Positions 1-10,039 of a stretch of 24,680 nucleotides of DNA are shown piece by piece. The notes beneath the pieces were generated by a model that was not told the DNA's origin, searched no databases, and saw only the letters and a list, made by a program, of their open reading frames with translations. The translations under genes and the position numbers were made by a program. This stretch comes from Candidatus Baldrarchaeum yapensis (lineage in GTDB: Archaea; Asgardarchaeota; Baldrarchaeia; Baldrarchaeales; Baldrarchaeaceae): the NCBI GenBank assembly GCA_016840465.1, contig JAEOSH010000030.1:1-24680 (forward strand), given 5' to 3'. Each line of letters begins with the position of its first letter. The stretch's first letter is position 1.

Positions 1-1
1 C

Positions 2-823
2 GAAGTTCCCTACTTCGGCACACGCGACGAGTGGGTCCACTACTCCCCCGCCAAGAAGTGCTACGTGCACAGGTACGTCGTGGCAGCCGCCATCGACGGC
101 CCACGGAAGATCCCACTCTCCATAAGGCCCATCTCCATGTTCGACAGCCGCGCCGACGCCGTGGAGGCGGTGCTTCGTGACATCGAGAGGCTGGGGCTCG
201 AGGTCGAGGGGGTCTACATGGATTGTGGCTTTTTCTCGGTGGAGGTCATGGAGGTTCTCGCGAGAAGGAACATCCCGTTTGCGATCGCCGCTAGGAGGAC
301 GGCGGGTATAAGGAGGGTTCTGGAGGGGCTGAGCGGCGACGGTCCACACGTTGTTCCGTACGTTGTGAGCGCGGGCGATGGGGGGAGGCAGATTAGAGTT
401 GATCTCGTTGTTTACTGGCGCGGTGGGAGGCGGATTGTGGTAGTGTGTCGCGGCATGTCGTTGGGCAATGCATTGGAGTACTGGCGGAGGTGGGGCGTTG
501 AGACGTGCAATCAGATGGTGAAGGCGCGGAGGGCGCGGACGTGCTCACGCAGCGTCGCGCTTAGATGGTTTTTGTTGCTTGTTTCCGCGGTCATTTATCT
601 TTCATACGTTTACCTTATTTCGCGATGCGATTCAGCCCCGGCGAGCTACACGTGCTTTCTCGGAGCGCTTGTTTTGCACTTCTTCGAGTTTGTGGTTGAT
701 AGGGCCCGCCCCCGGCTGATGTTCAGGATCTGCATGGTATTGCTTAGGGTTGCGCCCGCCGTACCGTATTTCGGTCGCCCGCCGGTGTGCGTTTCGCCGC
801 AGGGTGGGAGGTGGTGTGAATGA
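2..823 (+). mobile_element. IS4-superfamily (ISH3-like) DDE transposase, 5' end cut off by the window edge
   Basis: The frame is open from position 2 (EVPYFGTRDEWVHY...). It has a DDE-type motif VYMDCGFFS and an IS4 Y-R-E-K signature YWRRWGVETCNQMVK. The sequence is visibly GC-richer than the rest of the window. Confidence 0.85.
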
Positions 824-856
824 GGGAATAGACCATAAATGTCCATTCCTCAGAAA

Positions 857-871
857 GTTTCAGAAGTACTA
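857..871 (-). repeat. Candidate right terminal inverted repeat of the IS (TAGTACTTCTGAAAC on the minus strand)
   Basis: It lies 34-48 bp after the transposase stop, and its xAGTAC start resembles my recollection of ISH3-family ends. The partner repeat is outside the window, so it cannot be verified. Confidence 0.35.
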
Positions 872-2618: not shown

Positions 2619-3984
2619 GAATAATATTGCTCTTAAAATAGTGAAAAGACTCCTAAAAGAGGGATTGCACATAACTCCAGAGGCTCTCGATCTGCTTATT
2701 AAGACCGATAATCCCGAAGGCGCTCTCAACACTCTTCTCGAAAAACTAAAAGAAATGAAAGAGTTGCCAATAGTCGTTGATGTACCCCATCTGAGCAATA
2801 TCATACACCCGCCGGAAAAAGAGTTTCCGGAACGTGAGGAGATCACCATTGAAGAGTTTTCGATATTACGCCAGCCATCTTGGGACTCCTTTATGGGAAC
2901 AAATATGAACGCACGTGTAAATTACCTGAAGTCGAGATATGAGAAGTTAAAGTCCATATTCACGCAGCAATACGAGCACGTAAGTATTGCAGAGGCTAAG
3001 AAGTTCAAAAAAGGAGAAGTTGTTTCATTGGTAGCAATGATTACGGGTGTCAATCGCGAGGATGAGAAAGTAACAATGATGTTGGAGGACGAGTCCGGTG
3101 CGGTTCTAGCAATCGCTGATCTGAAGAATATGACCATATTTCCGGTGCCAGATATTGTCATTTATGTTAAAGGGGAAGTTGAAAGTCCAGATACCATAAT
3201 TGTAAAAGAAGTAAATCTGCCACCAGAAGACTTCGAAAAACGTCAATCACTTAAACCACCTTCCACAGTGTTTGCAGTGCTGATTTCTGATATACATGTA
3301 GGAAACCCGAATTTTGCTGAGGAACAGTTCAAAAAGTTGTTAAGGTGGATATCGCACAACCACAAATCCCTTAACATAAAATATATCATAATCGCGGGAG
3401 ATGTAGGAGAATTTTCACCAAGTTCCCCATACACTCCCTATGAAAGATTCTCACAACTTATCTCTCAGATACCATCGGAGATAAGAATAATAATCATACC
3501 TGGAGATAGCGATAGCCTCATCCCGACACTTCCACAGATTCCCCATAAGTTCATCCAGAAAATTGAGAAGTTGAGAAATAATATGCATGTGTTTGGAAAC
3601 CCTACACTTATCTCGCTATTAGGAGTGAAGATTTTTGTATACCATCCAATCGGACTCGAGAAGGTTGCATTATCGTTACCAGGCGTCACACGTCCCTCGC
3701 AAATTGTCGAATATCTAATAAAAACTCGATGCATGGCCCCCTACCTCGAAAAAGTTCCTGTATTGCCCCATAAGGATGATATCTTCGTACTAGAAGACGT
3801 TCCCGATGTCATACACTTAGGGCATCTACACTCCGCAGACTCCGGCCGCTATAAGAACCTGGTATATGTGTGCTCCGGTTCTTGGATAAAAAACGACCCC
3901 GGAAAACTGCCATTCTCACCATCCACATGCGTTGCACATCTCCTAAACCTAAAAACATTGGAAGTTCACGAAATTACCTTTTGA
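2599..3984 (+). CDS. DNA polymerase D small subunit (DP1)-like protein with OB fold and calcineurin-like phosphoesterase domain; exonuclease motif degenerate
   Basis: N-terminal helical domain, OB-fold segment (MMLEDESG), and motifs SDIHVG, IIAGD, VPDVIHLGHLH and SGSW. The canonical GNHD reads GDSD. The gene is adjacent to orc1/cdc6. Confidence 0.8.
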   Translation: MMSALSENNIALKIVKRLLKEGLHITPEALDLLIKTDNPEGALNTLLEKLKEMKELPIVVDVPHLSNIIHPPEKEFPEREEITIEEFSILRQPSWDSFMGTNMNARVNYLKSRYEKLKSIFTQQYEHVSIAEAKKFKKGEVVSLVAMITGVNREDEKVTMMLEDESGAVLAIADLKNMTIFPVPDIVIYVKGEVESPDTIIVKEVNLPPEDFEKRQSLKPPSTVFAVLISDIHVGNPNFAEEQFKKLLRWISHNHKSLNIKYIIIAGDVGEFSPSSPYTPYERFSQLISQIPSEIRIIIIPGDSDSLIPTLPQIPHKFIQKIEKLRNNMHVFGNPTLISLLGVKIFVYHPIGLEKVALSLPGVTRPSQIVEYLIKTRCMAPYLEKVPVLPHKDDIFVLEDVPDVIHLGHLHSADSGRYKNLVYVCSGSWIKNDPGKLPFSPSTCVAHLLNLKTLEVHEITF

Positions 3985-5221
3985 GAACCGAGGATGGTAA
4001 ATTAAAATCACTCAATTTTCTGAGAAACGGGTCCTCGTTCAGGACCTCCTTTATCAACTCCAACGGAACCGTCAATGTTATCTTCTTGGTCCTGCCGTAC
4101 CGCCCCTTACTTATAACTCTTGCGTTTATTAGCCCTAACATGTCCAAATCGTTAAGAAGATCACTCATCCTGCGTTGCGTCACAGGATCTATTCTCAAGA
4201 ACTGACAAACTTCCTTATACGTTTCGTATATGAGACCTGTTATCGCCTCCGCAACCTTTGCCCTTTTAAGCAGATAAATGCTGAATAGAACCAACTTTGA
4301 TTGTAATGGTAACGTGCGCACGGTCTCCCTCACAGTATCTCTCTCTATCTCCCTCAAAGCTCTCCAAACATGATCCGTCGTAACCTTACTGGCTCCCTCC
4401 CTCTCCGCAATTTCCCCAGCAACCCGCAGGAGATCTAAAGCTCTTCTAGCATCGCCATGCTCCCTCGCAGCGAGCGCTGCACAGAGATTTATCACGTCAT
4501 CTCCCACGACCCCATCATTAAAACTTATTTTCACCCTCTGCAACAATATGTCCCTTAATTCGTCTGCAGTATATGGGGGGAAGAAGACTTCTTCCTCACT
4601 TAAGCTACTAAGAACACGAGGATCGAGATAATCCTTAAACATCATGTCATTCGAAATCCCGATCACACAAACGCGTGCCTGAGAAAGATGCGAGTTTATC
4701 CTAGTGAGATTGTACAAAACGTCATTTGCAATGTCTTTATTCTTTTTTATCAATCTGTCTAACTCATCTAAAACTATTATCATTAGATTTGATGTTCTAT
4801 CAAGGTAAGCCTTGAACTTCTCGTAAAGCGTGTCGGTGGGTAACCCGGTGAAGGGAACTTTCCCACCAACTTCTTCACAGAGGCGTGCCAACACCCTATA
4901 ACACGTATCCACAATCCTACAATTAATATATGCGGTCAAGGGCTTTGAAACACCTAATTTGTCACATACGTTCTCTAAATACTTGAGAACATAAAGTGCA
5001 ACAGCGGTTTTTCCGGTCCCCGTCTTCCCGTATAAGAACGCGTTTGAGGGCGTCCCGCCCTTGAGTGCAGTGGCAAGGATCGCACCCAACTTTGTTATCT
5101 GCTCCTCGCGATGAGGAAGTTCATCAGGAACATAACTAGGCCTTAATGCGTCCCGGTTCTTGAACAGAGATGGCGATGACAGTATCTGCTTGAATAGATT
5201 ATCGAGAATGCTGCTCTTCAT
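3974..5221 (-). CDS. cdc6: Orc1/Cdc6 replication initiator (AAA+ plus winged helix)
   Basis: Walker A GKTGTGKT, Walker B VLDELD, sensor GDARRALDLL, and C-terminal wH segment SKGRYGRTK. The start is placed at ATG 5221 after a GGTGA RBS; the ORF track extends to 5293. Confidence 0.96.
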   Translation of the reverse strand: MKSSILDNLFKQILSSPSLFKNRDALRPSYVPDELPHREEQITKLGAILATALKGGTPSNAFLYGKTGTGKTAVALYVLKYLENVCDKLGVSKPLTAYINCRIVDTCYRVLARLCEEVGGKVPFTGLPTDTLYEKFKAYLDRTSNLMIIVLDELDRLIKKNKDIANDVLYNLTRINSHLSQARVCVIGISNDMMFKDYLDPRVLSSLSEEEVFFPPYTADELRDILLQRVKISFNDGVVGDDVINLCAALAAREHGDARRALDLLRVAGEIAEREGASKVTTDHVWRALREIERDTVRETVRTLPLQSKLVLFSIYLLKRAKVAEAITGLIYETYKEVCQFLRIDPVTQRRMSDLLNDLDMLGLINARVISKGRYGRTKKITLTVPLELIKEVLNEDPFLRKLSDFNLPSSVLKR

Positions 5222-5387
5222 GCCGCTACTCACCACTAACTGCAATTCGGTTTTCAGAACATGATTCACTTCCACTCTCAAGATTTCTTCCATCTCTTAA
5301 ATATCCTCATATTACGTTTAACATAATAGCCCATGACGATCCTCTCAACTCCCGTTTAATGTCAACACCGATATCTCACGATAAAAG

Positions 5388-5403
5388 GTGGCCCAAGGGA
5401 CCC
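5388..5403 (+). promoter_or_regulatory. GC-rich motif GTGGCCC-RR-GGGACCC, copy 1
   Basis: GTGGCCCAAGGGACCC in the cdc6/HTH-CBS intergenic region; near-identical copies at 6476 and 8194. Confidence 0.6.
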
Positions 5404-5590
5404 ATTTTTAATCTCCTTAAAGGATCTGAAAATGCTGACTTTATACTTTATACTCTGTCAAAAACTTCATGACTCGATTAACAATCAGGGAGTTTCTACC
5501 TAGCGAACCGCATACCTCCCGATTTGCCATCCCAAAAAATTAACATCTCCTGTTAGCAAAATATATACACGATCCATCCTACGGAGTCGT

Positions 5591-6187
5591 GTGTCGATGA
5601 GTGAATTCAAGATACCGGAGCTTCCCACCGCCGAGGATATAAAGAGACTCAGAAGAATGGTCAAATTAACACAAGCAGAATTGGCAAAACTAGCAGGCGT
5701 AAGTCAGTCACTCATTGCTAGGATAGAAAAGGGATCCGTGGATCCTAGGCTCTCAACGTTGAGAAAAATCATAGAGGCGATTAAAAAAGCCGAAAAGAAA
5801 AACCTTGAAAAGAAAAAAGCCAGCGATGTCATGTATAAGGGAGTTATTACCGTCAGAAAGAATGATACCGTGAAAAAAGCCGTAGAACTTATGGAAAAAT
5901 ATGCAATATCGCAGTTACCGGTCGTTGATGAGAACGGATACCCAGTGGGCGGAATACAGGAATCCACGATACTTAAGAAATTGCTCGATTACGATCCGAA
6001 CGAGTTATTCGAAATGAAGGTGGAGGAAATCATGGAAGAGTGCTTTCCGCTCGTATCGCCATCTACAAGCATAGATACCGTCTATGAACTAATCCTAAGT
6101 GGGCACCCCGCAGTACTTGTTATGGACAAAGGGAAGCTCGTTGGCATAATCACGAAAATCGACCTTATTTCTCATGCGAAGAAGTAG
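5591..6187 (+). CDS. XRE-type HTH transcriptional regulator with tandem CBS domains (COG3620-like)
   Basis: HTH segment LTQAELAKLAGVSQSLIARIEKGSVDPRLSTL, followed by CBS repeats (ISQLPVVDENGYPVG; AVLVMDKGKLVGIITKIDL). Confidence 0.92.
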   Translation: MSMSEFKIPELPTAEDIKRLRRMVKLTQAELAKLAGVSQSLIARIEKGSVDPRLSTLRKIIEAIKKAEKKNLEKKKASDVMYKGVITVRKNDTVKKAVELMEKYAISQLPVVDENGYPVGGIQESTILKKLLDYDPNELFEMKVEEIMEECFPLVSPSTSIDTVYELILSGHPAVLVMDKGKLVGIITKIDLISHAKK

Positions 6188-6213
6188 TGTTCTTGTTAAT
6201 TTTGTAACAAGAG

Positions 6214-6238
6214 ACCCCCTCCTTTTCTTCCACTGGAA
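6214..6238 (-). promoter_or_regulatory. Origin recognition box ORB1
   Basis: Minus strand reads TTCCAGTGGAAGAAAAGGAGGGGGT, matching the archaeal ORB pattern TTCCAGTGGAAA plus G-string. Confidence 0.85.
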
Positions 6239-6408
6239 GTTTCCAAAAGAAGTATTGTTACTTTATTAGGGATAATAATATAACCCCCCATTATTTCTTT
6301 CATAGGTCAAATAAAAAATTCACACTAAAAAATTATGAAGAAATTTTCAAGAAATTTTGATAGACTTTTGTTACAAAAGTAACAAACAAAAGATCGTCTA
6401 TACACGTG

Positions 6409-6434
6409 TTCCAGTGGAAATAGAGGGGTGGGGT
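6409..6434 (+). promoter_or_regulatory. Origin recognition box ORB2
   Basis: TTCCAGTGGAAATAGAGGGGTGGGGT, with an extended G-string. Confidence 0.88.
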
Positions 6435-6475
6435 CGTCATACGTTGCTTTTTAAGTAATAAACGGGAATATAGGG

Positions 6476-6491
6476 GTGGCCCGGGGGACCC
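6476..6491 (+). promoter_or_regulatory. GC-rich motif GTGGCCC-RR-GGGACCC, copy 2
   Basis: GTGGCCCGGGGGACCC, between a TATA-like TTTTAAGT (~6449) and the RBS/ATG of the 6502 gene. Confidence 0.6.
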
Positions 6492-6501
6492 GGTGGTTGG
6501 A

Positions 6502-6939
6502 ATGATACGACTTGTGGTGTTTTGCTTCCATTTTTCGTCAAAGCCAAGTGACCCGAGGGATTTAAAAAGATGGTCCGTTAAAAAGACAAAATTCTACCGC
6601 GAACTTTATGGTGCCGACGTGAAGAACGTGAGGCGCAGGAAGGATGGAACAGTAACTGAAAGAGTATATCACGTACGTGGCCTTCTTGACGGAATACCGC
6701 ATATAAAACTTGATAGGAGCGTGTTTGCAGTCCCACCGGAGTTTGCGGCACGAGTTAGGAGTTTCTTTGAGAAGTATGCCGATGAAGTCGACTTTTGCAC
6801 TTTTATCGGATTATTTGATGAGGACATTATCAGGAAGAATTGCGATGGTGGAGAACTTTTACGGTTTATCACAAAAAATTTAGGAGATTTTACGAACAAG
6901 GAAAAGAATGGGAAAAATTATGAGAGTACTAATCTGTAG
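6502..6939 (+). CDS. Small hypothetical protein, possibly Cas2/PaaX-central-domain-like ferredoxin fold
   Basis: ORF with a GGTGG RBS before ATG 6502. The pattern LVVF...KFYRELYG...GLL...IKLDRSVFAVP suggests the fold. This is inference only. Confidence 0.55.
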   Translation: MIRLVVFCFHFSSKPSDPRDLKRWSVKKTKFYRELYGADVKNVRRRKDGTVTERVYHVRGLLDGIPHIKLDRSVFAVPPEFAARVRSFFEKYADEVDFCTFIGLFDEDIIRKNCDGGELLRFITKNLGDFTNKEKNGKNYESTNL

Positions 6940-7142
6940 TAGATTTTAGGTCGTCCTCTTCTTCCATCCCTGAGTGCGTATTTTTCGACCTTGCCTTCAA
7001 GTATCAGCTTTGTGAGGAGGTCGTACAGTGTGGTTCTTGGGATTCCTGTTATTTTTGACAGTTCATTTCTGGTTATTGGCCCCCGTTCCTTGAGAACCTG
7101 TAGCACCAATTGCTTTTTCTCCTCAACGTTTCTCTTAGCCAT
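6918..7142 (-). CDS. Small winged-helix DNA-binding protein (TrmB/ArsR-like)
   Basis: GPITRNELSKITGIPRTTLYDLLTKL helix-turn-helix, wing GRRGRPKIYY, and a GGAGGT RBS. Confidence 0.85.
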   Translation of the reverse strand: MAKRNVEEKKQLVLQVLKERGPITRNELSKITGIPRTTLYDLLTKLILEGKVEKYALRDGRRGRPKIYYRLVLS

Positions 7143-7234
7143 GCGTCATAACCTCCTTTGTAGCGCTTCTATCCTTTAGGTCGGACTTTGTAGAAAATAG
7201 TAACATATGTTTTTGAACTTTTTCATATCAACCG

Positions 7235-7651
7235 TCACATATTTTTAATGGCATTTTCAATAAGTCTATACTCTCTATTTAATCTGGCCCCCCTCCTATC
7301 GAGAATTCCCTCCTCGTAGAACCTTGCCAGGTAAGTTGCGACAGTGCTTGCCTTTATTTCCTCACCAAACTGCCGTTCATATTCTTCTTTCACGTCGGAG
7401 GACCGGAACCATCCGTATTTGAAATTGTTTTTGATGATATGTAGAAGTCTATCCTTTATAGTCAGTGACTCCAACTCGGTGGGCTCCTGTAACTCGGTCC
7501 CTCCCTCCCTTGGCACTTGGAGAAGTACAGCTTCTATGTATTTTTTCACCTCGGAGGGATCCTCTAATACCCACTGTCCCTTAATCGATAGCCTTACTTC
7601 CCCCTTCCCAGGGAGTTTGAGTTTCACTTCAATTTCGGGACCTTCTGGCAC
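7235..7651 (-). CDS. Hypothetical protein with C-terminal winged-helix domain
   Basis: C-terminal FRSSDVKEEYERQFGEEIKASTVATYLARFYEEGILDR...EYRL is wHTH-like. The start is placed at GTG 7651 after an AGGTGG RBS; the ORF track gives 7660. Confidence 0.72.
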   Translation of the reverse strand: MPEGPEIEVKLKLPGKGEVRLSIKGQWVLEDPSEVKKYIEAVLLQVPREGGTELQEPTELESLTIKDRLLHIIKNNFKYGWFRSSDVKEEYERQFGEEIKASTVATYLARFYEEGILDRRGARLNREYRLIENAIKNM

Positions 7652-7945
7652 ACATGCCACCTTTTATAATTACACGGGAAGCGTTGCGAATTCGCGAAAT
7701 AGATTCTCATGTAGAATTGTGAAATGGTGAATAAAAAAGTTACTGCATATTACAGTATCACGCATAATTATGAGAAATGCCATGTTATTTTTTGAGAATG
7801 TCTCATTTGTCATCATAATATTGCAAAAATAGGTGAAATTTTCGATATTTAATAAAGAAATCGGAACTTTCCAATCGCATTATTCACACAATTTCACAGG
7901 TTTGTGAAAAAGCGCAATGGAGAAATCTTATTAAACATCTCAGAT

Positions 7946-7966
7946 TTCCAGTGGAAACAAAGGGGT
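7946..7966 (+). promoter_or_regulatory. Origin recognition box ORB3 (distal)
   Basis: TTCCAGTGGAAACAAAGGGGT is a near-consensus ORB in a non-coding stretch of about 750 bp. Confidence 0.85.
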
Positions 7967-8193
7967 TCGGAAATCATATGTGAAATGGTACATAATGTGA
8001 TTCAATGGCGTTGCGAATTATTGTTTGAGGAATATGAGCGTGAAGTTATATACACAGGATGGCGCCATGAGAGAACATGTTAATTGTACATGTATGGGCA
8101 GTCCCATCACATAACTGGTTGCATGCGTGCGGAACATGCTGGGGCATCAGCACTAGAGGTCTCCGTTCTGCCACCGTATATGTAATATCAGTT

Positions 8194-8209
8194 GGGTCCC
8201 CTGGGCCAC
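8194..8209 (-). promoter_or_regulatory. GC-rich motif GTGGCCC-RR-GGGACCC, copy 3
   Basis: Minus strand reads GTGGCCCAGGGGACCC. Confidence 0.6.
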
Positions 8210-8405
8210 GTCCTTGGTTTTCTTCATTTACAGACAGTAGTTTATATGAAAAATGACGGGTCGAATTGTATCAAAGCTTGTGACGGTCAGAGTTGATGGT
8301 ATACAAACATTGGAGGAGGGGTCACAAATTTATAGGAATCAGTACATTGAACTTAAGTGGTATCTTCTTCGGATGGGCAGATGCAATAAATGGAGGGTAT
8401 TTACG

Positions 8406-9104
8406 TTGGACGTCTTCGAGGCGATATACACGCGCCGATCGATCAGAGAGTTTGACAAAACAAAGAAGGTACCCGACTGGATGGTAGAGAAGATATTAGA
8501 TGCAGCAAGGTATGGCCCATCTCCGGAAAATGTACAGCCATGGCGCTTCATAGTAATCAGGGATGAGGAGAGCAAAAGATTCTTGGCAGATATGGCGCAG
8601 GAGACGAGTTCGGGAGCGTTTGGGATGACGAGATATGAAATGACATCAGACAGAATCTGGTACGTGTCTGAGGAGGCGAGAGTGGACGTTGTAGAGAGAA
8701 TGTTCGATGGTAGGCTTTTCAGATATCCTGAGGAGGCGGATGTCGTAATACTCGGATGCACCAGTGATCACTGGTATGATATGCCGACCATTCCTGCATC
8801 AATTAAGGAGATAACTGACATGGCATTTGCGATGGCGGTGCAGAACATGTGGCTTGCAGCAACCGCACTTGGACTCGGTGCAGGATGGGATAGTTTCGTG
8901 TGCATAGGTGATGAGAGAAGGCGCGAAATGGTCGCGAGGTACTTTGGCATACCCAGAAACTGGAGGCCTATAACGGCATTCTGCATAGGCTGGCCAAAGC
9001 GTGCAAGGATACTTGGTCCATCTAGGTATCCGATAGAGGCTATAGCGTTTGAAGAGTATTGGGGTCGTCCCTATTTAAGACAGGCGTTTAGAAAGAAGAG
9101 GTGA
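8406..9104 (+). CDS. Nitroreductase-family flavoprotein
   Basis: Motifs AIYTRRSIREF, PSPENVQPWRFIVI and AVQNMWLAATALGLGAGW. The start is placed at TTG 8406 after a GGAGG RBS. Confidence 0.9.
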   Translation: MDVFEAIYTRRSIREFDKTKKVPDWMVEKILDAARYGPSPENVQPWRFIVIRDEESKRFLADMAQETSSGAFGMTRYEMTSDRIWYVSEEARVDVVERMFDGRLFRYPEEADVVILGCTSDHWYDMPTIPASIKEITDMAFAMAVQNMWLAATALGLGAGWDSFVCIGDERRREMVARYFGIPRNWRPITAFCIGWPKRARILGPSRYPIEAIAFEEYWGRPYLRQAFRKKR

Positions 9105-9109
9105 TTTGC

Positions 9110-9400
9110 ATGTCTCTGTCTATAGAACTTCCAGAGGAAGTTAGAGCGAAAATAGAGGAGTTTGCTAAGAAAATAGGTATAAATGTCAGCGAATTCTGCA
9201 AGATAATCTTGGAACTATGGATAAAGCATGAAGGAAGAATAGTTCCTGGCAGGGTTAAGGGAGGTATTCAGAGAATAGCGGTGGAGTTTCCGATGGGCTT
9301 TGTCCTTCTTGAAAAGGGGCCTGAAGGTATCAAAGAAATAGAGAAGAAGGTTGGTGTATTTACTACGAGAGTTAATGAGCAAAGTTACTGGGAGGTGTAA
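9110..9400 (+). CDS. Small protein with N-terminal ribbon-helix-helix (CopG-like) domain
   Basis: SLSIELPEEVRAKIEEFAKKIGINVSEFCKIIL fits the beta-alpha-alpha RHH pattern; GAGGTG RBS. Confidence 0.7.
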   Translation: MSLSIELPEEVRAKIEEFAKKIGINVSEFCKIILELWIKHEGRIVPGRVKGGIQRIAVEFPMGFVLLEKGPEGIKEIEKKVGVFTTRVNEQSYWEV

Positions 9401-9403
9401 TTA

Positions 9404-9658
9404 ATGAGTGAGTTCCTCGGTAAGGTTGAGATAAAGGAAGAAGACCTTCCAATGTGGCTCAGAAGTAAAGATTCGGCATTCATGGGGAGCATAGTGAAGT
9501 GGTTCCTCGAAGAGATGTTAATGCGCATAGAGATAGTGCTTCCAAGGGACCTCCAGAAGAAGTTTGAAGAAAAGGTTCAGAAGATTTATGGGAAGGTAAG
9601 CGCGGCGAACATAAGAAGAGCGGCCCTTCAGGCGATAAAGGAATGGTGTGAGAAATAA
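9404..9658 (+). CDS. Small protein with C-terminal RHH-like domain
   Basis: RIEIVLPRDLQKKFEEKVQKIYG...IRRAALQAIKEW; GGAGGTG RBS; tightly linked to its neighbours. Confidence 0.62.
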   Translation: MSEFLGKVEIKEEDLPMWLRSKDSAFMGSIVKWFLEEMLMRIEIVLPRDLQKKFEEKVQKIYGKVSAANIRRAALQAIKEWCEK

Positions 9659-9673
9659 TAGGGGGAAATTGAT

Positions 9674-10039
9674 ATGTCTGCGGAGAAGATAATGGACGCG
9701 TTTAAGAGAATAATTGACGCGATTAATAAGAACGAGAAGGCAAAAGAGTTCCTGAAGAAATGGAATGAGGGCTACGTTGGCAAAATAATAAACTTTAAGA
9801 TTGGTGATAAGGCGTTCCACTTAATCTTTACGGCTGAAGAGGCTAGGTTTGAGGAGGGCGAGTATCCTGCACCGGATCTAATGATAATAACGGATCCTGA
9901 GAGTTGGACAGCGATGGCAACAATGAAAAAGAAGTGGAGCGAACTGCTTGCGGAAGGAAAATTGATGATAATAGGGAATGCTCACGAACTTGCAACGCTT
10001 ACGAGGTTAATCATGCTCACAGGAATTATGCCGATTTGA
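9674..10039 (+). CDS. SCP2 (sterol carrier protein 2)-like lipid-binding domain protein
   Basis: FHLIF...EEGEYPAPDLMIITDPESW...LAEGKLMIIGN matches the SCP2 C-terminal pattern. Confidence 0.8.
   Translation: MSAEKIMDAFKRIIDAINKNEKAKEFLKKWNEGYVGKIINFKIGDKAFHLIFTAEEARFEEGEYPAPDLMIITDPESWTAMATMKKKWSELLAEGKLMIIGNAHELATLTRLIMLTGIMPI

Follow-up and report, generated by a model that had tools for sequence, protein, structure and literature searches.

A 16-bp motif confined to the cdc6-linked origin locus of Candidatus Baldrarchaeum yapensis, two copies of which bracket an inverted origin block

What is the role of a short GC-rich box that occurs three times around a replication origin and at no other place in the genome? 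The question is raised by a stretch of 24,680 nucleotides from the Asgard archaeon Candidatus Baldrarchaeum yapensis (assembly GCA_016840465.1, contig JAEOSH010000030.1, positions 1 to 24,680; hereafter the window), in which the 16-mer GTGGCCC-RR-GGGACCC surrounds the origin recognition boxes (ORBs) next to the cdc6/orc1 initiator gene. Copy 1 lies at 5388..5403 on the plus strand with the centre AA, copy 2 at 6476..6491 on the plus strand with GG, and copy 3 at 8194..8209 on the minus strand with AG. An initial annotation had reported these three copies as intergenic and near the ORBs, and took them for the site of an origin-associated factor linking cdc6 expression to origin activity. The copies are where it placed them, with the same strands and centres, and each is within 1.1 kb of an ORB. 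We show that the feature is real, undescribed, and narrow in distribution. The new finding, as judged from gene order, is a 2.8-kb origin block that runs opposite to its counterpart in Baldrarchaeum-type relatives and is framed by copies 1 and 3, which are inverted with respect to each other.

The motif has a 7-2-7 layout and is specific to this locus. Aligning the copies in register confirmed that 14 of the 16 positions are invariant. These are all 14 positions of the arms, with variation restricted to the two central bases, both of which are purines. Under neutral change, both variable columns would fall on the dyad centre in 1 of 120 placements, a calculation for which the borders were picked afterwards. 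The flanks of the three copies share 25–27% pairwise identity, which is the random level, and only 1 of 60 columns is the same in all three. One way to read the box is as a pseudo-dyad in which 5 of 7 positions pair; another is as two heptads resembling GGG-N-CCC at a spacing of 9 bp. All copies are intergenic, and each of the three large spacers between genes of the origin locus holds one. The absence of further copies, first reported for the window, holds for the entire 2.27-Mb assembly (96% complete), in which there are exactly three matches to the RR motif at zero or one mismatch, all in the origin block. Shuffles of the window gave a mean of 0.29 matches and a maximum of two, even with three mismatches permitted. 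It is the sole 7-2-7 word in the genome with at least three copies all confined to 5 kb, and its 13-bp core is found in this genome at this locus only.

Several simple explanations for the motif were rejected. An assembly artefact is very unlikely, since the copies are identical in the independent same-species assemblies examined (ENA, JGI, NCBI, and Logan), except where contigs end before a copy. A restriction or methylation word does not fit either, as GGNCC is only mildly avoided and is too short to account for 14 bp. Fragments of tRNA match only at three mismatches. As for a viral attachment (att) site, viral contigs yielded 10 scattered matches, of which nine were single-copy and within two mismatches; this is consistent with chance. 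No Rfam family matched the motif.

We read this pattern as that of an operator. Because the arms are fixed, the 2-bp centre is free and the flanks are unrelated, selection appears to act through a protein that contacts two half-sites. Fixed arms around a free spacer are the usual pattern of operators and the opposite of what a crossover site needs, and here the half-sites are conserved, the spacer is free, and the sites are intergenic. The reading we tentatively favor, with confidence somewhat short of even, is that the 16-mer serves as the operator of a lineage-specific protein that represses or tunes cdc6 and its neighbors, where we infer binding, regulation and promoter positions from the sequence. 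Promoters were predicted with a rough matrix for the B recognition element and TATA box (BRE-TATA), trained on 11 tRNA promoters that themselves score 8–13 bits. The best predicted promoter of the cdc6 spacer, at 5451-5439 on the minus strand, scores a tRNA-like 11.1 bits and would start transcription toward cdc6 at ~5416, from inside the inverted block. The cdc6/orc1 open reading frame (ORF) occupies 3974..5293 on the minus strand, with a probable true start at ATG 5221 behind GGTGA, based on the sequence and on alignment starts. Copy 1 would then cover approximately +14 to +29 of the transcript, within the predicted leader. The link to cdc6 expression in the initial annotation is plausible given this position just downstream of the best predicted promoter; its origin-factor role found no support. 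Copy 2 sits between ORB2 and the Shine-Dalgarno sequence GGTGG of orf145 (6502..6939, plus strand) and abuts this ribosome-binding site. It had been placed at the orf145 transcription start, which is weakly supported, as TTTTTAAG 27 bp upstream scores 2.5 bits only, versus 8–13 for the tRNA promoters. Copy 3 is ~120 bp upstream of a weak predicted promoter of the nitroreductase gene that opens a four-gene cassette (nitroreductase, two RHH-like ORFs, and SCP2; 8406..10039, plus strand).

In this operator model, the 16-mer would be a double-stranded site of two GC-rich half-sites bound by a protein of this lineage. Protein on copy 1, in the cdc6 leader, would block or tune transcription of the initiator, and protein on copy 2, just before the ribosome-binding site of orf145, would do the same for neighboring genes. 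The convergent outer pair, copies 1 and 3, might additionally be bridged to form a loop around the three ORBs. This pair may also have supplied the short homology for a one-off inversion of the block.

The distribution of the motif bears on which protein this could be. No second genome of its family was among those compared; the relatives include four same-order genomes of another family. At copy 2, the sister lineage is represented by one 1-kb contig of 72% nucleotide identity that covers everything between the ORB2 G-string and orf145. A search of 40 relatives at one mismatch gave only scattered matches at control level, and the 13-bp core was never present more than once per genome in 300 other Asgard genomes. 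In 20 Asgard origin regions there was no clustered copy and no comparable GC-rich triplet, and Baldrarchaeum-type origins had no motif within three mismatches. At the place of copy 2, the motif is absent from Baldrarchaeum-type relatives, and the sister-lineage contig contains nothing nearer than five mismatches. Sister-lineage contigs spanning copy 1 or copy 3 were searched for and none were found, and a Cdc6 search of genome contigs recovered only distant archaea. By contrast with the motif, the ORBs, the TTGTTA-N4-GTAACAA palindromes, and the TCACA boxes are common to the origins of relatives and the present one. The palindromes here, at 6193..6210 and 6368..6385, are conserved accessory origin boxes distinct from the 16-bp motif.

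The initial annotation had named the HTH-CBS protein or one of the winged-helix proteins as the binder. These are encoded by the HTH(XRE)-CBS regulator gene (5597..6187, plus strand), which is conserved across Asgard origin regions; the TrmB/Lrs14-like winged-helix gene wH74 (6918..7142, minus strand), which is conserved near Asgard origins; and the uncharacterized winged-helix gene wH138 (7235..7651, minus strand), which adjoins cdc6 in most Asgard origin regions sampled. That one of them is a conserved origin factor acting at the motif to couple cdc6 to origin activity now seems improbable to us. All copies are next to these genes and close to an ORB, copy 1 in the predicted cdc6 leader is in keeping with such a role, and archaea offer a precedent for accessory origin boxes with their own binder (ucm/UBP, PMC12141716). 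However, HTH-CBS and wH74 keep their recognition helices (SQSLIARIE and PRTTLYD, respectively) almost unchanged across Asgard, and the sister-lineage homolog of wH138 has the same helix as the protein here. The motif, by contrast, is missing from the orthologous origins examined, an absence that the initial annotation had itself listed as telling against its proposal. It would be unlikely for a DNA reader to be conserved when its site is not, and the three proteins are thus disfavored as binders. The conserved GTAACAA and TCACA boxes, which the present origin shares, suit them better, and the interval flanked by the inverted ORB pair, which in Sulfolobus oriC1 holds the essential ucm, contains no copy of the motif. 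The recurrence of a copy 1 flank, ATAAAAGGTGGC, at 7667-7656 on the minus strand is real, but it belongs to the Shine-Dalgarno region of the wH138 gene. AAAAGGTGGC is conserved there in the sister lineage, and the 12-mer match is estimated to be near chance level.

For the favored operator reading, the binder is therefore, judging from these helices, probably a protein other than HTH-CBS, wH74, or wH138, and several points weigh against the reading as a whole. Among the candidate proteins considered, none stands out as the binder. The strand of one RHH-like ORF, the one at 9404, is altered here (R-I-E-I-V versus H-I-F-I-V), but we rejected this protein as a weak candidate: the strands of its homologs are variable and hydrophobic, the Arg also occurs in one relative, and its structural model is poor. 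The homologous cassettes examined have no motif upstream, and no further regulon member was found in the assembly. No consistent distance to a predicted promoter was seen for copies 2 and 3, and copy 1 alone fits well. Point mutation does not readily yield three identical asymmetric boxes, so the reading also requires copying of some kind, and the absence from the sister lineage depends on one 1-kb contig.

Why, then, does cdc6 stand apart from its ORBs? In the window, the order is cdc6 (minus strand), HTH-CBS, the inverted ORB pair, orf145, the two winged-helix genes, ORB3, the nitroreductase cassette, and hypF. ORB1 (6215..6238, minus strand) and ORB2 (6409..6432, plus strand) each carry a G-string, and ORB3 is at 7946..7966 on the plus strand. 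In six Baldrarchaeum-type loci the order is instead cdc6 (minus), ORB3, wH138 (plus), wH74 (plus), orf145 (minus), the ORB pair, HTH-CBS (minus), and hypF (plus), with ORB3 between wH138 and cdc6 at ~420 bp from cdc6 codon 30. Most of the other sampled Asgard loci likewise have wH138 divergent from cdc6. By gene order, the whole block of HTH-CBS, the ORB pair, orf145, wH74, wH138, and ORB3 (taken as 5404..8193) is reversed here relative to cdc6 and hypF, and it is because of this inversion that cdc6 is apart from its ORBs and ORB3 seems distal. Together, copies 1 and 3 make up an inverted repeat of 17 bp in which 16/17 positions match, and each spacer that must contain an inversion breakpoint holds one of them, copy 1 in the left zone and copy 3 in the right zone upstream of the nitroreductase cassette. 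Copies 2 and 3 are also inverted, matching at 15/16. The cassette itself lies here between the block and hypF, and in related contigs it is found beside SIR2, without the motif upstream. Across Asgard cdc6 origins, HTH-CBS, wH74, wH138, orf145, and hypF make up a conserved set whose order and orientation are very variable, and given this variability the region looks like a local rearrangement hotspot.

This geometry raises the possibility that the copies are recombination sites, or relics of them, on which the origin block was flipped. We regard this as rather doubtful overall, with a fixed relic being unlikely and an active switch more unlikely still. The gene set between copies 1 and 3 is exactly the one inverted relative to the six Baldrarchaeum-type loci, and inverted repeats of at least 14 bp flank it. 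With sites oriented plus, plus, minus, the geometry is that of a shufflon: recombination between copies 1 and 3 would flip 2.8 kb and restore the gene order of relatives, and between copies 2 and 3 it would flip 1.7 kb. The former would detach the predicted cdc6 promoter from cdc6 and return ORB3 to its side. When the inversion is undone at the motif centers, the distance from ORB3 to cdc6 becomes 445 bp as compared to 417–427 bp in relatives, a fit within 18–28 bp, and only 16% of possible breakpoint pairs come within 30 bp of the range in relatives. Since homology to relatives is recognizable from ORB3 to ~8115, the right break should fall beyond this point. Copy 2 is placed between a TATA-like box and a ribosome-binding site, and the motif is lineage-specific, as are the inversion and the cassette move. 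Were the copies the working sites of an invertible origin cassette, which we think improbable, a trans-acting recombinase would flip the block at low frequency and thereby switch cdc6 between promoter-attached and ORB3-adjacent states, making the initiation of chromosome replication phase-varying.

Other observations speak against recombination at the motif. The centers differ in all pairs (AA, GG, and AG), and serine-type recombination is blocked by mismatched central dinucleotides (PMC5062993), while a tyrosine-type crossover inside one 7-bp arm would be compatible with them. The recombinases found in the assembly (96% complete) are IS607-type serine enzymes and one tyrosine enzyme, XerA-like, whose gene context is that of a housekeeping function. 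No dedicated invertase or IS110 transposase was found in it, and no recombinase near the locus. Every same-species assembly examined has the orientation of the window. Contigs from four runs span the copies in the reference orientation, and none of the joints listed falls at a copy; contigs drop rare variants, however, and runs X1 and X3 may be the source sample, so that a minor state may have been missed. In run X3 (depth 85–103), contig breaks occur at 6903-6932 and 8380-8409, away from the motif, and run X7 contains a strain of ~95% identity that is colinear across copy 3. Alignment scores do not favor breaks at the motif, which ranks 76 out of 105 same-length reconstructions. Breaks must be intergenic in any case, and single inverted pairs as good as this one are frequent, numbering 179 in the genome and 93 in a shuffle. 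A 13-mer at 8176-8190 shared with genome G002 and an 11/12 match near 5311-5322 were considered as breakpoints off the motif, but both lie near chance level and were set aside. The operator and relic readings can both hold, if inverted operators seeded the inversion.

Another possibility is that the motif acts in RNA, where the GGGUCCC-YY-GGGCCAC strand would fold into a hairpin of 5 bp whose loop contains the variable bases. Such a hairpin could attenuate transcription in a leader or be the target of a protein or small RNA. A terminator-like hairpin with a T-run is called at 5402-5390 on the minus strand within the predicted cdc6 leader, and the variable positions of the motif do fall in the hairpin loop. 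Further, contig C81 carries a structured RNA candidate with one end complementary to the motif at 14–15 positions; this element is the only one-mismatch relative of the motif in the genome when the center is left free, and it folds well (z −5.2). The copies themselves have no folding advantage over shuffles (z between −0.8 and +1.7), show no compensatory changes among them, and are oriented differently relative to their genes. About one match like that in C81 is expected by chance (estimate 0.7), the ends of the C81 element are locked in their own 18-bp stem, and neither it nor the motif has an Rfam match. We consider an RNA role to be a poor prospect on balance. The element, at C81:15516-15684, is a single-copy GC-rich sequence of ~170 nt with an 18-bp terminal stem, a long rod fold, and a TATA-like box ~26 bp upstream on the minus strand. 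Its ends match the motif at 13/14 arm positions, it has no blastn match in the four same-order genomes, and it is a candidate new non-coding RNA or lone miniature inverted-repeat transposable element (MITE).

Finally, the copies could be leftovers of mobile elements, either ends or footprints, with no present function. The genome contains several active-looking insertion sequence (IS) and MITE-like families, and the motif is lineage-specific and sharply bounded. We find this the least probable of the explanations. There is no copy elsewhere in the genome, contig ends included, and the IS607 regions and a 270-bp repeat element contain no match better than four mismatches. No target-site duplication is visible at the copies, and neutral relics would not restrict all changes to the dyad center. 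Scattering as a MITE or repetitive extragenic palindromic fragment, which the initial annotation had raised against itself, is likewise not what we observed, as there are no dispersed copies or element-end matches. The repeat element of ~270 bp is at C96:28615-28895, with copies on C8, C55, C56, C58, C74, C79, C82, and C88. It has no terminal inverted repeats, contains internal GC-rich direct repeats, occurs in length variants and often at contig ends, and is probably a non-autonomous IS607- or IS110-like element. At the contig start, window positions 1-871 hold a DDE_Tnp_1 insertion sequence with many diverged copies in the genome.

Several other features of the locus were noted. We found no second ORB cluster of this kind in the assembly. 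The orf145 product belongs to an uncharacterized archaeal family with a confident ferredoxin-like alpha/beta model and no confident structural match. The patterns K-x-x-FYRxLYG and GLLDxIPH-x-x-L-x-x-SVF are conserved in this family, and linkage of the gene to the origin is seen in Baldrarchaeum-type loci as well as in at least one further Asgard family. We rejected its identification as a recombinase or Cas2-like enzyme because, although the model is good (predicted local distance difference test score 85), there was no PDB match at E below 0.001. The nitroreductase cassette is conserved in several Asgard families, and the nitroreductase is 84% identical to the Baldrarchaeum-type copies as compared to 50–70% for neighboring genes, which may signify strong constraint or transfer. 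In the origin spacer, a C-run at 6283-6289 has a one-base length polymorphism between assemblies. The segment at 8085-8190, between ORB3 and copy 3, is GC-rich with three short hairpins, unlike the spacer in relatives, and folds no better than shuffles.

In the literature that could be searched, we found no description of the motif or of the origin of this lineage. Asgard replication origins are almost unstudied, and to our knowledge accessory origin factors have so far been characterized mainly in the Sulfolobales. A box unique to the origin locus could serve as bait for a lineage-specific cdc6 regulator, and the locus suggests that origin control can be rewired together with a local inversion. 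The narrow distribution, in one species-level lineage, limits the general importance of the motif unless the copies are recombining sites. Copies that still recombine would make this a phase-variable chromosomal origin, and we found no precedent for one.

How does the motif compare with known systems? Bacterial parS sites are 16 bp, few in number, and all origin-proximal. The present motif resembles them in length, copy number, and location, but it is not the parS palindrome, and no gene for a ParB_N partner was found in this assembly. The genome does encode a XerA-like enzyme, and chromosomal inversions are common in vent archaea (PMC8371274). However, dif is a single-copy 11-6-11 site, whereas the motif is a 7-2-7 site in three copies with unrelated flanks, and IntpTN3-type inversions in Thermococcales were shown on identical segments of ~100 bp or more (PMC8371274). 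Like ORBs, mini-ORBs, and WhiP-type boxes (PMC4010727), the motif is repeated, directional, and origin-proximal in an inverted arrangement. Unlike ORBs, it has no similarity to the ORB consensus, does not flank an AT-rich unwinding element, and is not conserved with cdc6, and classic ORBs exist at this origin separately from it. Like the ucm motif with UBP at Sulfolobus origins (Dhanaraju et al. 2025, PMC12141716), it is short, is not an ORB, lies at a cdc6-linked origin of an archaeon, and presumably has a lineage-restricted binder. Ucm is an AT-rich 11-mer between ORB2 and ORB3, found in Sulfolobales and Aeropyrum with more than 300 genomic sites. The present motif, on the other hand, is GC-rich, has three genomic sites, and is absent from the nearest related family, and all of its copies are outside the core of ORBs and unwinding element (6215-6432). 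The R64 shufflon and Hin/hix are bacterial inversion systems of the inverton and shufflon type. In contrast to invertons, no second orientation was seen within the species, there is no adjacent invertase, and the centers are mismatched. The likeness to invertons and shufflons (PMC9881135) is in the inverted repeats of at least 14 bp that flank a kilobase-sized block whose orientation differs between genomes, in the promoter inside that block, and in the third site, which would give a multi-state geometry. Where those systems carry surface or restriction genes, an inverton here would have a chromosomal origin as its cargo.

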